Positions 18,001 through 24,000 of a DNA stretch of 64,000 nt are shown here, one piece after another. Position 1 is the first letter of the stretch. Every line of letters starts with the position of its first letter. Made by a program: the position numbers. This stretch comes from Bdellovibrionales bacterium (GTDB taxonomy: Bacteria > Bdellovibrionota > Bdellovibrionia > Bdellovibrionales > UBA1609): positions 114,031-178,030 of the forward strand of contig JAWLHR010000004.1 in assembly GCA_041690295.1 (NCBI GenBank), written 5' to 3'.

Positions 18001-21000
18001 CCACCGCAAGCTGCAGACCCTGCACAGAGTGGGTTTGGACTACATCACGCTCGGGCAGAGTTCGACCACGCTTTCCGGTGGCGAAGCGCAAAGGGTGAAG
18101 CTTTCGCGCGAACTCTCCAAGCGCGACACGGGCCGGACCATTTACATTCTGGATGAGCCGACGACGGGGCTTCATTTCGAGGACGTGAAAAAGCTGGTTG
18201 ATCTTCTGCAGGAGTTGGTGAACCAGGGGAATACGGTTTTGGTGATCGAACACCAACTGGATGTCATTAAAGCCAGCGACTACATCATCGATCTTGGGCC
18301 CGAAGGGGGTGAGGCCGGCGGTCGCATCGTTGCCTGTGGCACGCCCGAGGAAGTGGCTCGCAACCCGCAAAGCATCACCGGTGAATTTTTGCGGCCGATG
18401 CTGAGGTCGTTCGCTCCCTCCACCGGCTCGAATTATCAACATGGCATGAAAGCCACGACCTAGAGAACTGCCCCACTAGCCTGCAGAAAATCCTGGCGAG
18501 AATTTTGCCTTAAACCACAGGGCATGCGACCAAGCTGCCCCTATTGCCATTCATCCTCAGAGATGTCCGATCACCGGATGCGTATTCAAAAAGCCGGATT
18601 CTTCCGCCGAATCTCCGATGGAAAAAGAGTGCGAAGATTTTATTGTGTAAGCTGCAGTAGATACTTTTCTTATGCCACCTTTCACCCCTGCTTTAGGCAA
18701 AAAAAGCGTCACCTCAATCATCGTATCAACAAACTATTAGCTTCAAGCGTATCTCAGCGCCGAATCGCAAAATTACTCCATATCTCCCGAACCACAGTTG
18801 AACGAAAGTTTCTTTTTCTGGGCCAAAAAGCAGTCCATGAACTTGAACATCAAAACAATTCCAGTCCCCTGGCCACTGTTGTTGAATTTGATGAACTTGA
18901 AACCTTCGAGCACACAAAGTGTAAACCGCTTTCCGTTCCACTAGCCGTTGAATCAAAAACCAGAAGAATTTTAGCCTTCCAAGTGGCCCAGATGCCTGCC
19001 AAAGGAAAGCTCGCCCGCATTTCTCGAAAGAAATATGGCCCAAGACCAGACTTCAGGCCGAAAGCATTGAGTGAACTTTGTGAGAGTTTAAAGCCACTCA
19101 CCACACCTGATGTGCAATTCAAATCCGATCAAAATCCAATGTATCCGGAAATTCTAAGGCGTCACTTTCCTTTAAATTCGCATGAGCGCTTTAAAGGGCA
19201 AAGGGGTTCGATTGTCGGACAGGGGGAGTTAAAGAAGATCCGTTTTGATCCACTTTTTAGTTTGAATCACACGTGTGCGATGCTTCGAGCCAATATCAAT
19301 AGGCTAGTGCGGAAGACTTGGTGCACAACGAAAATTCCTAATAGATTGCGTCTTCATCTCGCCATCTATGCGGTTTATCACAACAATATGATTCGAGCAG
19401 GACCATTAGCTGCAGGCTAGTGGGGCAGTTCTTAATCGACTCTAGGAAACGTCATGGTCACAATGGTTCCGTGATCGACTTTGCTTTGAATGGAGAAGGT
19501 TCCCCCCATATTTTCAACATTTGCACGGGCATTGAAGACTCCGATTCCTGAACCGCTATCGCCGGCCTGCTTACCATAACTGATGGGCTCTTTGCCGAGT
19601 CGGCGTAGAATTTCTTCGGGAATGCCTTTTCCTGTGTCGCTAATAATCACGGCAATGTCCCGTAAGGAAGATCGTAGCGCTACCGTAATTTCGCCGGCCC
19701 CATTTAACGCTTCGACGGAATTGTTGATCAAATTGGAAAGTGATTGAGCATACATTTTCCTGTCTAACAGGCAAATGGCCTCTTTCGTATCGCCCTGAAC
19801 ACTCGATGTTATCTTGATTTTGGAATCCGCGGGTAATGAAGCTCGCTTTTCTAAAACCAGCTCCTGAAGAAAATCCGCGACTTTTACCGGGGTTAGAAGG
19901 TTTTTTTGCTTAAGAGCCTGGCCGGAAAACGGTTTGCTTTGGGAAGGCATCTTATATTTGGCCAAGAGGTCGTTGGCGATTTCATTAATTCGCTGAGCCG
20001 CGTTTTTCACGATGGATCGTTTTTCCTCGGGAAGGTCCTTAAGCGAGGCAATGACCATGTTCAGCGCGGACAAGGGAGATCGAATGTCATGAGAAACTTG
20101 GGTCGCCAGAGCGTTGAAAGCCTCTTTTTGCTCAATGCTCAACGAAAGATTATAATCGGCGATGAGTCGAGCCCGCATGCGTTTTGAGAGAAAGTGCATC
20201 ATAAATCCGCTGAGCAGGACGGCGACAATCGAAACGAACACAAAAAACGTGAGATCGAGGCCGAACTCGATGGAACCGATCTTTTCACGAAAGGTCTCTG
20301 GTTGAGCGTCAATGACGAACGCGCTTTGTAAAAGCGGCTTCTTGTACAGAGGAGGGACGGTCAATGACTCTCGTCCGTCCGCGCTGATATAGCGAATGTA
20401 GGTGAAATGGGAGCTTACACTTAAACTGATCTCGATCATGGCGCTTCGATAGTCGCCCTTAATGAGATTCGGATGTGATTGTGTCACGGCGATTGACGCC
20501 AGTTGTTTTTTGAACGAATGAAAAAGCCAAAAGCCGGCGCCAACGCCCGAGAGCGTGAGACAAAGAAAGTAAATCCTGAGATTGAACTCCGCTTTCTTTA
20601 TTGTTCTCTCGATGTTTTGAACGCTCATGGCTAGCCTATAAAATGAGGAAGTGAATTGGGTTTGAAGCCGCAGTCGTATTCGATCAAATCACGATGCGAG
20701 ACCTGCACAACGCTCATCCGATCTCTTAGGTCTTCCAGGATGTCGGGAATTTTGAGTTTTCGAACATCGAAGTCGTCCAAACGGAACGGTCTTTTTTCAC
20801 GGAAATCAGGTCCATCCATTTGAGCATCGGGAAAAAGGTGGCGGATTTGTCTGACGTAATCGGGATCCAAACCGAGGAGTCCATGGTGAATCGGTTGCCA
20901 GCTCGATAGCGATCGGAATTCGGTCAAACTTACGGCCTGGACGGGTCTCGATGAAAATAAGAGCGGAAAGTTTTGAACGCACTCGAGGATCGCCTTTGTG

Positions 21001-24000
21001 GCAGCGCTCTCCCGGCTTTGGGCCGAGCCAAAACCGAAGATATATTTTTCGACTCCCTTGCCATCTGACCTTTTGGCGACGCAAATGAGAACTTCGCATT
21101 GTTGAAAAAGGCTCTCAGCTCGATAAATAGATACTGACACGTTTCGCTCGCGGCACTTATCCAGGAAAAAGCCAAAGGCCTTATCCGTCGGTTGCAAGTT
21201 TTGTAGCTTATATGGAATGCCATCATTGAAATGGGCGAGGACCGCATCGCGCTCGATGGCCTCGAGCGCCGCGTTGATAATGGCTTGGTCCTCATCGAAA
21301 TGCGCGGCAATTCCACTCAAAGATTTCGATTTCGAACGATGCAAAGTGATTCGCTCAAACATCTCAATTAATGATTTGCCCACGGCGCGCTCGTCAGTTT
21401 CGGCCACGGATCGGCCGACGATCTCAACCCCGGAATCGGCACAAATGGCGCGAACGTCAAAATAACCCGGAAGCCAATCTTTTATATAAGTGAGATTCTC
21501 GAATCGAAGATTGATCTTTCGTTGAGCCAGCGCCCAATTTGTCAGTTCTTCGAAATTTTCCATAAAGGTGAATTGGGGAACAAAATCGAAAAGTCAGCAC
21601 GCCATGGCTTGCGAATAACTGACACATAGGGGGTTCGTAAAATGGGAATGATCACCGGATTTAGCAAGCTTTCGAGGTGGAGCTGTTTAAGAGCTTGAAG
21701 TCGTTGTTCCTCGTCCGTCAAATAAAGGTATTTCTCGATCCACAACTCACGTTCCTGCTCCGTCGTGCCGAGAAAACCTGATTTTAAGCTGTTTATGACA
21801 TTCGGAAGTTGCTCAAGAAACCCGGTATCCATGGAAACGATGTAAAGATGGGGATATTCAGGCGCATCAACATTTGAATCGTACGAGGGAAGCCTCTTTA
21901 GTTGTACGATCTGAATGCCCGGTAGAATTTCCTGAACGACAGGCCGCATGCGATCGAAGTTACGGGCAAAGAAGCCGAGCACAAGCTCTGATCCGTCCTC
22001 GTGTTTTGGGACCGGTGTTTTTCGCTTTTCGAGGACAGCGCTTAACTGCTCGTCCGTAAGACTTCCTTTCCCGCCCTCGGGAAAATACTGGTAGGTCGAT
22101 TGATAACCGGTTCTCCCGCCAAAAACGGATGCGAGTTGATTGGCCACGGCGTTTCCAACCGCCCATCGGCGATCTGATGACAATTGGAGACCTTTTTGCG
22201 TGAAAACCAAGAGCTCAAGCCGCACGGGGAGAGTTTGAAAAAGCGTGGCCTCATTTGAGTCGCGATATTTGTCGATACGCTCACTGATGTCGGTTTGATC
22301 CAACGTACTGAGCAGATCGATTTGACCCGACTCAAATAGTTCAAGACCCGACTTCGAGGATTCGCGCGTGGGAATAAAAACCGGATTCTGTGGAATATCT
22401 TGCGAATAGAGGAAGTGCCGGGGGTTCGCGCGAAGCACAATGGCGCCGTCACTCCGGCGTTCTTTAACAGAGTAGACGCCGGACGTAATGGATAGATTCA
22501 AAGATCTGAGATCGTTGGGATCCACCGAGCGCTTGGGGATTACGGCAAAATCGATGGAGCTGAAGTTTTCGAAGATGGTGAAGGTTTTCTTGCTCGGTTT
22601 TAATCTAAGCTTGCCGTCCACAATGCGGATTCCAGCACATTGATCGTTCACGGACTTGGGTTGGCTATCCGGACAAATCAGTTTCTTCAAATCGCCGTGC
22701 GTGCTTGATCCCAGCACAAGCAATCGCATCAATGAAAAGTAGGCGTCCTCGACTGTGATCTTTTGTCCCTCGGAATCAACTAAATCCTTGTTGATTTCAA
22801 ATTCGATTTCATCATCGACCCAATAGAATTTCGACGCGGCTCCGGGAATGAGTCGGCCGAGATTGTCTCGCAACAAAAGGGGAATATACAGATTCTCTAA
22901 AAAAGCATACTGTCCGGCGACTTGAACTCGAGCGGGATCGAACTCGGAAAGGGAAGTCTCATAAGGGAATCCAACTTTGAACTCGTGAACATTTGAAGGG
23001 ACGGTCATGAGATAACCTCTGAGGCTAAAAAAAATGGCACTCAGAATGAAGAGTGCCATTGTTGCTAGAAAAAACTTAATGTTCATTTGAAAGCGAACTT
23101 ACCTCTCTCCAATTCCAGGAGTATAGGTGCCGATTTCGTCTGGCCTATCCGTCAATAAATCCGCATTCTTGAGCTTCTTGATCACATTTCCATCCTGAGA
23201 ATCAGCGGCATGTGCTGTAGCAAGTCCAAGGATCGTTCCCAGCAAAACTAACAATGCCTTCATTATGTCCCTCCTGCCAAACGATGAACTGGTCAGATAA
23301 TCTATAGTTAAGCAAAGCTAAGGCCAACAAATCAACCGGCATTAAGCAAATGCTTGTCCGATAAAGGCTTCCAAGTTTTAGGATTTTGGTCTCAATTTGA
23401 AGACGAGTTAGCGATGTGTCGAATTCGATTATGAAAAAATAACAAGGTTTTAAAAATCTTTTCTCCCATCCAATTGGAGTTCATACTCGGTCACCTGTGT
23501 CGTCTTGGCTTCGCCTTTCCAGGTGTAGCTGTTGCCGTTCGGGGTGAACCCAAGTTTCCGCCAAAAACCGCTGACGTCGTTTTCTTCGGAAATTCCCAAT
23601 TGGATTTTTTCGATTTTGTAGGTTCGTTTCAAGAAATCGGCGATCAGCTCAAAAGAACGGCGGCCCAATCCTTTACCGAAAACGTCCTCAACCAAGAGCA
23701 GCAGTCCGATGTAGGCCACACCCTCCTGGGGATGATGGACATGAACGTCGGCGGCGCCGATCGGTTTTCCTTCATGTTCGATGATCATGAAGGTTTTCCG
23801 ATAGGCGGCGACTTTTTCTTTCGGCTCCAGGGTCATCTCGGTCTTGACCGTGTGTTCGCTCGGCTCGCAGCCATCGACTTTGCGAAAATACTCCGGAGAT
23901 CTTTTGAAAATCTCAAGAACGGTGGCCGCATCCTCGGGCGTGGCGAAACGCACTCTGAGGTGATCGGGAGGACGAGCGGGCGGGCGACCGTTGTGTGGGC

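Follow-up and report, generated by a model that had tools for sequence, protein, structure and literature searches.

What would a YcaO enzyme do in an operon whose other members are a periplasmic peptide-binding protein and a sensor histidine kinase? The question is raised by a locus in a Bdellovibrionales genome of 2.9 Mb (99.9% complete), lying within the 64,000-nucleotide stretch of DNA that we analysed (the window). The answer to which sequence comparison leads us, with somewhat better than even confidence, is a circuit linked to sigma-54 in which a modified peptide would be both produced and sensed; in this genome the peptide is probably one in which Thr48 has become a methyloxazoline.

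Organization of the cassette

The cassette comprises a 54-aa ORF with a signal-peptide-like N-terminus, an orphan family-5 solute-binding protein (SBP), a stand-alone YcaO of 310 aa and a sensor kinase, all on the minus strand (Table 1). Direct reading of the sequence finds the four ORFs where the first-pass annotation had placed them, and all are intact. The YcaO ORF overlaps that of the SBP by 22 nt and is separated from the kinase gene by 2 nt. The SBP had been taken to start at 23059; a start at 23086, which keeps the charged N-terminus, lies 12 nt past the stop codon of the small ORF and gives 514 aa, is more likely. Contigs from four DNA runs (four studies) match the parts that they cover nearly letter for letter; none covers the whole cassette, and they provide no variants for a selection test. 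A scan of the genome contigs with one protein as query gave no match. An ICE setting is not supported for this cassette: a VirB4-family match is absent from the whole genome, and the neighbours are housekeeping genes.

Table 1. Features of the cassette in window coordinates.
Feature	Position	Strand	Properties
Sigma-54 (-24/-12) promoter-like motif, TGGC-N7-TTGCT	23311..23326	-	Ends 47 nt before precursor start; consensus presumed
Ribosome-binding site AGGAGG of precursor gene	23270..23275	-	From sequence reading
Candidate precursor, 54 aa	23099..23263	-	Residues 1-19 signal-like; leader motif L31..L37; core G45-T46-Y47-T48-P49-G50
Thr48 codon of precursor	23120-23122	-	At the Cys position of the family
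10-bp hairpin and T run	23033..23060	-	Just 3' of precursor stop, within first SBP codons; terminator- or attenuator-like
Orphan SBP_bac_5 protein, 514 aa, putative receptor	21542..23086	-	From Pfam and hydropathy; hydrophobic N-terminal segment 5-19
Short stand-alone YcaO, 310 aa	20631..21563	-	E67xxE70R71, E101xxE104R105, K190xxxE194; C-terminus PHFIG; no hydrophobic segments
Membrane histidine kinase, 398 aa	19432..20628	-	No receiver domain; His180 in SHDIRSP box

The YcaO enzyme

The enzyme belongs to the YcaO superfamily (Pfam PF02624, E = 2.4e-15, 57.1 bits against a cut-off of 25.7). It lies below the cut-offs of the SagD-type model TIGR03604 (E = 4.4e-12, 45.6 bits with 219 needed) and the McrA-type model TIGR03266 (E = 1e-6, 28 bits with 365 needed). 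The first-pass annotation is reproduced in the Pfam match, in the position below both NCBIfam cut-offs, in the size of the short-YcaO family (454 representatives at E<=1e-3), and in the best Foldseek matches, 6cib and 6peu, now joined by 6ci7 (probability 1.0, TM about 0.6; AF2 model with pLDDT 94 and pTM 0.92). The hint of thioamidation in that Foldseek ranking is not supported because TfuA has no match in the genome; the low TIGR03266 score likewise gives it no support.

The ExxER-type motifs presumably bind ATP and Mg. An alignment of 148 members shows glutamates E67, E70 and E101 to be invariant, as had been claimed; E194 had been counted with them, and is conserved in 94%. The ATP-site residues E67 and E101 are present in 72 of 72 type-A loci, and the second glutamate motif aligns with MJ1094, McbD and TruD. 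According to PMC7136475, YcaO proteins convert Cys, Ser and Thr to azolines, stand-alone forms exist, and a PxP C-terminus is a feature of the azoline-forming enzymes. The window's enzyme ends in PHFIG rather than PxP; over the 148 members the tail is PxP in 82, with His at -4 in 128 and Phe at -3 in 33, and a clade of 11 loci lacks the tail entirely and keeps Cys precursors. No E1/ThiF-like partner or FMN dehydrogenase is present among the 16 window genes scanned, and SagB has no match anywhere in the genome.

The enzyme shares with other stand-alone and azoline-forming YcaOs (the bottromycin YcaOs, McbD, TruD/LynD, MusD and 6ci7/6peu) the fold, the ExxER motifs and a Cys/Ser/Thr target in a peptide that bears a leader. 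It differs in its length (~310 aa), its minimal N-terminal part, the single target, the signal-peptide precursor, and a link to a sensor and not to an exporter.

The candidate precursor

The window's small ORF contains no Cys, and had been suspected of decay. This doubt is largely removed because Thr48 stands at the position that Cys has in the relatives, and L190, the nearest relative, shows the same. With the L190 precursor as query the window's ORF is the best match among the 19,618 small ORFs of the genome (E = 0.019; runner-up 1.3), and the ungapped score of 56 between the two was reached by none of 2000 shuffles. Neither the family HMM nor the leader PSSM singled out the window's ORF among the same small ORFs (rank 1311), so the placement of Thr48 depends on one relative, whose own YcaO, shortened to 292 aa, is not followed by a kinase. 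A protein search with the two-sequence precursor alignment returned just its own two members.

The wider family was examined with 82 hand-curated precursors (five automatic calls removed and 12 added). Of the 82, 60 have a Cys among their 10 C-terminal residues, compared with 1529 of 6646 other small ORFs, and in 23 of 50 relatives a Cys lies at +11 after the leader motif. In the aligned sequences the target column is almost only Cys, Ser or Thr (i.e. the residues that YcaO cyclodehydrates), with C50, S2, T1 and V1 in 54 type-A precursors and C5, S3 and T1 in nine long type-B precursors, noting that the column comes from a gapped alignment, which favours Cys-Cys pairing. The window has the Cys/Ser/Thr target in a leader-bearing precursor that is typical of azoline-forming SagD-type systems, its Thr48 being placed through L190. 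Export of the precursor is suggested by our own charge-plus-hydropathy rule rather than by a signal-peptide predictor; the window's precursor passes this lax rule, as do 27 of 81 control sites, so that the mere presence of a signal-type ORF is weak evidence.

The circuit might be the same with another chemistry, in which YcaO activates the amide at the conserved residue to cut or tailor the C-terminus (an ATP-dependent peptidase as in MusD, an amidine, or a short-lived azoline), and no stable internal azoline would be left. We consider this rather unlikely. It would fit the PHFIG tail and the tail-less clade, the appearance of MusD, which its title calls a YcaO with ATP-dependent peptidase activity, in both the fold and the sequence searches, and the fact that no dedicated protease recurs among the annotated neighbours. 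It is opposed by a column that accepts almost only beta-nucleophiles, and by nitroreductase-family genes adjoining six loci (one above the SagB cut-off), as would be expected where azolines become oxidized.

Binding protein, kinase and candidate regulator

The SBP (SBP_bac_5, E = 3e-10) is 65% identical to that of L190. Its family profile matches structures of OppA, MppA, PrgZ (4faj) and NikA, and the matches include nickel- and metallophore-binding SBPs and 1zty. None of the genome's 17 matches to the permease family BPD_transp_1 (PF00528) is on the window's contig, C4, in agreement with the earlier statement that no ABC permease is nearby; the genome's five canonical SBP5 genes do adjoin permease genes. 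The permease beside the SBP that marks an Opp/Dpp-type ABC importer is therefore absent here.

The kinase has HisKA and HATPase_c domains, hydrophobic segments at about 19-36 (by eye) and 126-144, and a periplasmic loop of 83-126 aa. The five SBP-linked kinases of the genome have a common [AS]HDIRSP H-box. A predicted structure of the SBP with the kinase periplasmic domain (score 0.01, mark 0.32) speaks neither for nor against binding. LuxO is a sigma-54 activator, and the family of CBP is consistent with the match to 1zty. Control of a kinase by a periplasmic binding protein has precedent in ChiS-CBP and LuxPQ, as described in 10.1101/2020.01.10.902320. The cassette resembles Vibrio CBP-ChiS and LuxP-LuxQ in that a two-helix membrane kinase accompanies a periplasmic binding protein, and possibly in directing several kinases to one sigma-54 activator. 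It differs in that the ligand would be a modified peptide encoded in the same operon, in the small size of the loop, and in having no permease.

Most relatives had been said to add an NtrC-type sigma-54 regulator. This is true of half; a sigma-54 activator lies within 5.5 kb in 36 of 72 loci of SBP>YcaO order, some of which are cut by contig ends. In the present genome an orphan activator at C13:69748-71085 is a candidate partner of the window's kinase. It is a core gene, present almost always as a single copy (128 of 151 genomes), and has 53% identity with the activator next to L170; receiver similarity does not favour it, as it falls outside the top 20 with the receiver-domain profile of the cassette regulators.

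Sigma-54 motif and hairpin

The promoter-like motif was called with a -24/-12 consensus that we take to be that of sigma-54. The window contains six matches where 1.4 are expected, and a similar motif is found at equal offset (-62) in L190. Across the family it is present at 24 of 75 operon starts (11/30, 8/19 and 5/26 by group) compared with 11 of 439 controls, leaving two thirds of the starts without it. Together with the activators beside half of the loci, this might reflect self-control of the operon as in agr/ComQXPA, with the partner of the window's kinase a candidate. The motif precedes none of 18 conjugation operons, so the idea that sigma-54 acts directly on transfer genes gains no support; it also precedes none of 14 type-C GNAT genes.

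The region 3' of the window's precursor has a folding z of -4.7, and z<-2 is found behind 22 of 82 precursors compared with 3 of 82 control stretches. The hairpin probably keeps the precursor message in excess.

The family and sister cassettes

Among 121 short-YcaO loci, 63 have the order SBP>YcaO>HK and nine more the same order without a visible kinase; the permuted order YcaO>SBP>HK occurs in 17, and in four more without a visible kinase. The 15 type-C loci (GNAT, haem-oxygenase-like protein and YcaO) lack an SBP as well as any evident precursor, and L042 and L097 have neither beside YcaO. Across the 63 loci, sequence identities of the YcaO, SBP and kinase are correlated (Spearman 0.65, 0.52 and 0.57). 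Since the loci are related, all such counts overstate independence. The earlier proposal, in which a YcaO with a Sec-type candidate precursor forms part of an SBP-dependent two-component system, stands up in this larger sample, and gains four lines of evidence in the Cys/Ser/Thr column, the sigma-54 motifs, the hairpin, and layouts with other maturases.

The window's copy could be a remnant, i.e. an acquired cassette from which the regulator and the Cys have disappeared, with intact relatives still functional. Its GC content is 0.48 compared with 0.525 genome-wide (among the lowest 2% of 3.8-kb stretches), just four of the 17 other members of the genus have a close SBP, L190 is shortened, and the genome's C19 SBP and C14 kinase are each split into two ORFs. 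We nevertheless judge it very improbable. The four intact ORFs are accompanied by promoter motif, ribosome-binding site and hairpin, and all catalytic glutamates are kept. Terminal branches are short (0.14 for SBP, and 0.34 for YcaO in a FastTree tree that carried long-branch warnings), and GT[YW]TPG is common to the precursors across 45% YcaO divergence. L191, of the same clade, has an intact PHFIG tail and a kinase 54% identical, and the regulator-less loci, half of the family, have a fixed H-box among their kinases.

The host genome repeats the layout twice more, with a radical-SAM/SPASM enzyme and an HExxH enzyme replacing YcaO; a putatively secreted precursor of its own accompanies each. 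The radical-SAM version is on contig C19, where the order is rSAM>SBP>HK. Of 13 related loci, 10 have this order and 11 have a small ORF of signal type behind rSAM. The HExxH version is on contig C3, and also in L258 and L259. Its precursors carry A-R-x-D near the end, similar to the ARMD motif that HEXXH RiPP enzymes cut (PMC12636437). In characterized counterparts of ARxD the cut leaves an amide at the C-terminus; this would again suit the C-terminal cutting considered above. We propose that precursor, SBP and kinase make up a chassis whose maturase is exchangeable, and that the cassette is one of its versions.

Sec-exported RiPPs have precedent in the bufferins, as described in 10.1101/2024.03.18.585515. 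Bufferins share a Gram-negative host with the cassette, and would share with it a cytoplasmic maturase that forms heterocycles; the Sec-type signal on their precursors may also have a counterpart in the window's precursor. The cassette differs in using YcaO, rSAM or HExxH enzymes instead of an MNIO, an unstructured tail with one target, an SBP and kinase in the operon, and sigma-54 rather than an ECF sigma factor; no MNIO maturase with partner protein is found among the 16 window genes scanned. By analogy with these Cys-heterocyclized periplasmic peptides, the product might be a periplasmic ligand or metallophore, with the SBP and kinase sensing not neighbours but a metal-peptide complex or the state of the envelope, and the nickel- and metallophore-binding SBPs among the profile matches would agree. 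This seems improbable given the single modified residue, the existence of Thr and Ser versions, the radical-SAM and HExxH forms of the same chassis, the very diverse cores, the several cassettes per genome, and the lack of metal-handling genes among the annotated recurrent neighbours.

A circuit that would make and sense a modified peptide

In the circuit that we favour, a sigma-54 promoter would drive precursor, SBP, YcaO and kinase. Cytoplasmic YcaO would recognize a leader of the LxxxGx[VIL] type and, with ATP, cyclodehydrate the residue 11 places on, giving a thiazoline from Cys in most relatives and a methyloxazoline from Thr48 here. The precursor would exit by Sec and probably be trimmed, after which its modified tail would bind the orphan SBP, which in turn would control the small periplasmic domain of the kinase. 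Signalling to a sigma-54 activator would close a feedback loop; such an activator adjoins the cassette in half of the relatives, and in the present genome would be encoded at another site.

A broader reading is offered tentatively, with the odds somewhat against it. Bdellovibrionota may use a combinatorial RiPP signal language, in which a fixed chassis (sigma-54 promoter, Sec-exported precursor, orphan family-5 SBP and kinase with a small loop) takes interchangeable maturases (short YcaO, radical SAM/SPASM or HExxH oxygenase) and so yields a multitude of private signals. Those versions that lie on conjugative elements would bring their own activator, and the chromosomal ones, five in this genome and all with the [AS]HDIRSP H-box, would converge on one core regulator; the predator might count kin, rivals or confinement in prey on several chemical channels. 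In the window's channel Cys would have given way to Thr (an oxazoline switch), and the receptor would have changed to match.

In the literature covered, which takes in a minority of subscription journals, we found no paper describing the cassette and no peptide signal for Bdellovibrio-type predators. To our knowledge, modified-peptide signalling through two-component systems is a Gram-positive trait, and such a language would be unlike any that we found described in Gram-negative bacteria. If correct, the modified-peptide circuit would provide a testable communication system for predatory bacteria and a new role for YcaO enzymes in signal maturation. It would also supply stand-alone YcaO, rSAM and HExxH enzymes of very small size, with substrates predicted to be modified at a single site, and many peptides and receptors already matched by nature.

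Autoinduction by modified peptides is known from staphylococcal agr and Bacillus ComQXPA, and PrgZ binds a pheromone. The cassette differs from agr and ComQXPA in its Gram-negative host and interchangeable maturases, and would differ in general Sec export, an SBP as receptor for the kinase and sigma-54 output. It is like them in placing precursor, maturase, kinase and regulator in one unit that would activate itself, in its many sequence variants, and in a link to conjugation genes, seen in 24 of 51 regulator-bearing loci.

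The cassette and its setting

The first-pass annotation had named four ORFs on the minus strand, and a check of sequence and domains found all of them in place. The cassette is real and conserved; no description of it was found in the literature searched, in which it is apparently undescribed. It is flanked by housekeeping genes (UvrA-like, Fur, ALAD, Maf, Lgt and ribonucleotide reductase), and its GC content of 0.48, against 0.525 for the genome, is among the lowest 2% of 3.8-kb stretches. The covered parts are near-identical in contigs of four DNA studies, one contig spanning most of the small ORF and its promoter with an almost exact match. 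In the SBP family 16 of 17 strong named matches are labelled Bdellovibrionota or Oligoflexia, the sole exception being a 5.7-kb contig labelled Chlamydiae. The SBPs P0155-P0158 have 43-68% identity to that of the cassette.

At window positions 19403-19437, 35 bases are matched by deeper contigs (three of four runs) that then run into other sequence. This suggests relatives without the cassette behind the gene at 18524-19420. The cupin-GNAT ORF directly upstream of the cassette promoter is no recurrent neighbour of the relatives' cassettes.

Features of the window and of related loci (positions without a contig or locus name count along the window; C, contigs of the same genome; L, fetched loci)
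Feature	Position	Strand	Remark
Putative -24/-12 sigma-54 motif	23311-23326	minus	same offset in L190
Small ORF, candidate precursor	23099-23263	minus	54 aa
SBP_bac_5 protein	21542-23086	minus	514 aa counted from first ATG
YcaO	20631-21563	minus	310 aa
HisKA kinase	19432-20628	minus	398 aa, without receiver
Two cupin domains fused to GNAT domain	23450-24955	minus	501 aa
Orphan sigma-54 activator	C13:69748-71085 (L330:3749-5086)		
Radical-SAM/SPASM, signal-type ORF ending in Trp, split SBP (two ORFs), kinase	C19:21762-25920 (L206:2763-6921)	minus	signal-type ORF 101 aa
Small signal-type ORF with ARxD, HExxH protein, SBP, kinase	L255:2937-6305		end of C3; HExxH protein 291 aa
Methyltransferase, SBP, MFS, kinase	C2 (L207:4441-11207)		divergent from B12 radical-SAM RiPP C-methyltransferase
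SBP, kinase split into two ORFs	C14 (L256:1670-4573)		
222-aa gene, HDO homologue	C8:49417-50746		
Type-C loci	L046, L049-L051, L059, L065, L071, L073, L082, L087, L091, L095, L098, L107, L118		

The YcaO enzyme

A search at E<=1e-3 yields 454 representatives of the short-YcaO family. An alignment of 148 members, each 280-350 aa long, shows E67, E70 and E101 without exception and R71, E104, R105 and E194 at 93-98% conservation; the usual C-terminus is PH[P/F]xG. The predicted structure of the window enzyme (pLDDT 94) resembles the archaeal thioamidating YcaOs and the heterocyclases LynD, TruD and McbD equally (TM about 0.6, identity 9-18%); because the two groups are matched alike, the structural ranking leaves the chemistry undecided. 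A sequence search yields the same set. The NCBIfam scores are far under cut-off, and neither TfuA nor SagB was matched in the genome, which is 99.9% complete. The enzyme is a YcaO, and by the tests of the LAP/TOMM and thioamide families it lies outside them.

The candidate precursor peptide

Most loci have a signal-like small ORF upstream of the SBP. The rule that calls such ORFs also fired at 27 of 81 control sites and is weak by itself, so the precursors were curated by hand, giving 82 distinct ORFs (five automatic calls dropped, 12 added). Cysteine lies within the last 10 residues of 60/82 precursors, compared with 1529/6646 other small ORFs. In loci of the order SBP, YcaO, kinase (type A) it stands at +11 after the leader motif LxxxGx[VIL] in 23/50 and at +12 in 6/50. 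The aligned target column of 54 type-A precursors contains 50 Cys, two Ser, one Thr and one Val, and that of nine long precursors from loci of the order YcaO, SBP, kinase (type B) five Cys, three Ser and one Thr; the column is not evident in some short type-B tails. Cys, Ser and Thr are the residues turned into azolines by YcaO enzymes (PMC7136475), and the column holds nearly only residues of this kind. The same signalling circuit could operate if the YcaO cut or tailored the C-terminus instead of leaving a stable azoline, a reading that departs from the main one in chemistry only.

The family HMM misses the window's small ORF, as the first-pass annotation had stated, and the leader PSSM misses it too. 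The nearest relative of the cassette, L190 (YcaO 45% and SBP 65% identical), has a 74-aa ORF at the precursor position. Used as query against 19,618 small ORFs, it ranked the window ORF first (E 0.019), and the ungapped score of the pair was reached by 0/2000 shuffles. G45, T46, T48, P49 and G50 are common to both, and a PSSM built without the Cys column aligns the L190 counterpart of Thr48 with the family's Cys, scoring 8.9 there and -4.1 in the next register. In YcaO and SBP trees alike the pair forms a long stem (1.3 for YcaO by FastTree; 0.91 for SBP, support 100/100) within clades of xIC-type precursors, and the Ser pair L074 and L099 is likewise on a long stem inside such clades. This placement fits a change of specificity. 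Against this, the L190 YcaO ends at 292 aa and has no kinase downstream; L191 is of the same clade, but intact. No third Thr member was found in a protein search with the two-sequence precursor alignment.

We note that L053 has a 117-aa precursor-like ORF before its SBP, that repeats a GGRT motif and lacks Cys.

Gene order and a possible partner of the kinase

PF02624 is matched in 125 of 301 genomes of the phylum. Loci were taken for 80 of the about 84 weak matches listed (25 further matches fell outside these), for 40 of the 105 entries from a profile search across the order and for two metagenome loci. A short YcaO is present in 121 loci including the window. Automatic typing assigned 63 to the order SBP, YcaO, kinase and nine to the same without visible kinase, 17 to YcaO, SBP, kinase and four to the same without kinase, 15 to type C and 13 to other or cut loci; type A is over-represented in this set because the second batch was picked by likeness to the window's clade. 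Over 63 loci YcaO, SBP and kinase rise and fall together in sequence identity (Spearman 0.52-0.65), and YcaO and SBP have the same nearest neighbour in 42 of them. Such co-variation shows a common history, not binding.

Of 72 type-A loci, 36 have a sigma-54 activator no more than 5.5 kb away. Conjugation genes (VirB2, VirB3-like, VirB4) adjoin 24/51 loci with an activator and 1/42 without. The window cassette belongs to the class without an adjacent activator, and no VirB4-family match was found in its genome. The motif [AS]HDIRSP occurs in 25/29 kinases without an adjacent activator, against 1/34 with one, and in this genome the exact box is confined to the five kinases that follow divergent SBPs. 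The simple reading is that kinases with the common H-box would use one shared chromosomal partner. A candidate is an orphan sigma-54 activator lying between two housekeeping genes, which is core (128/151 genomes of the order) and has housekeeping neighbours in 12/12 loci; receiver similarity does not favour it. The genome encodes 12 sigma-54 activators.

Putative promoter and hairpin

Upstream of the window operon is a motif that we take to be a putative sigma-54 -24/-12 element; transcription would then be predicted to begin some 12 nt downstream of its GC. Scored blind at operon starts, it precedes 11/30 activators, 8/19 YcaO-first and 5/26 precursor-first operons, compared with 11/439 other genes, 0/18 conjugation operons and 0/14 type-C genes. 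A 10-bp hairpin and T run lie 3' of the window precursor stop (folding z -4.7), and strong folds are found behind 22/82 precursors and 3/82 controls. The strict motif occurs at 38/2528 genes of this genome, many of which by eye have signal-like starts.

Other candidate maturases on a proposed common chassis

In this genome a kinase gene follows each of five divergent SBP5 genes, and a further five SBP5 genes, of canonical type, have permeases. Of 300 other genomes, 12 have homologues of the radical-SAM protein on C19, whose cassette has a GC of 0.43. The order radical-SAM, SBP, kinase is found in 10/13 loci; an unlabelled gene replaces the SBP in 1/13, and contig ends cut 2/13. A small ORF is present in 11/13 and a sigma-54 activator in 7/13.

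Two loci homologous to the HExxH cassette on C3 (L258 and L259) have an extra activator and a sigma-54 motif, one of them with a pilin-like gene just downstream. The HExxH enzymes of L249 and L253 have no Pfam match; an Atlas listing of an aKG-HExxH peptide hydroxylase cluster (0.95) is a lead only. The precursors of the HExxH cassettes have ARVD or ARAD close to the C-terminus; for HEXXH enzymes that have been characterised, cleavage at ARMD leaves an amide (PMC12636437). Every maturase is thus found next to a small ORF with a fitting tail, and no other observation argues as strongly for these ORFs being substrates.

Known peptide autoinduction systems include agr and ComQXPA. We lean towards reading the cassette as a modified-peptide autoinduction circuit with a stable azoline; that such a circuit operates with either this chemistry or C-terminal cutting or tailoring is quite probable.

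At the C2 locus, where no precursor was found, the B12 radical-SAM RiPP C-methyltransferase scores 505 bits with TIGR03975 (cut-off 282). Neither maturase nor precursor was seen at the C14 locus.

Loci outside the modified-peptide reading

Type-C loci, tail-less YcaOs and short type-B tails do not fit the modified-peptide reading. The 15 type-C loci are a separate clade in which the YcaO is accompanied by genes for a GNAT and a haem-oxygenase-like protein and faces a kinase and a regulator; they have no SBP and no evident precursor, and possibly represent a small-molecule signal pathway. The tail-less enzymes (L179-L189) are an 11-member clade of about 270-290 aa that lacks the C-terminal PHxxG but has every ATP-site residue in place and precursors with Cys; most adjoin conjugation genes. 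In the window's own genome the HDO homologue on C8 lies downstream of the 222-aa gene, without a YcaO.
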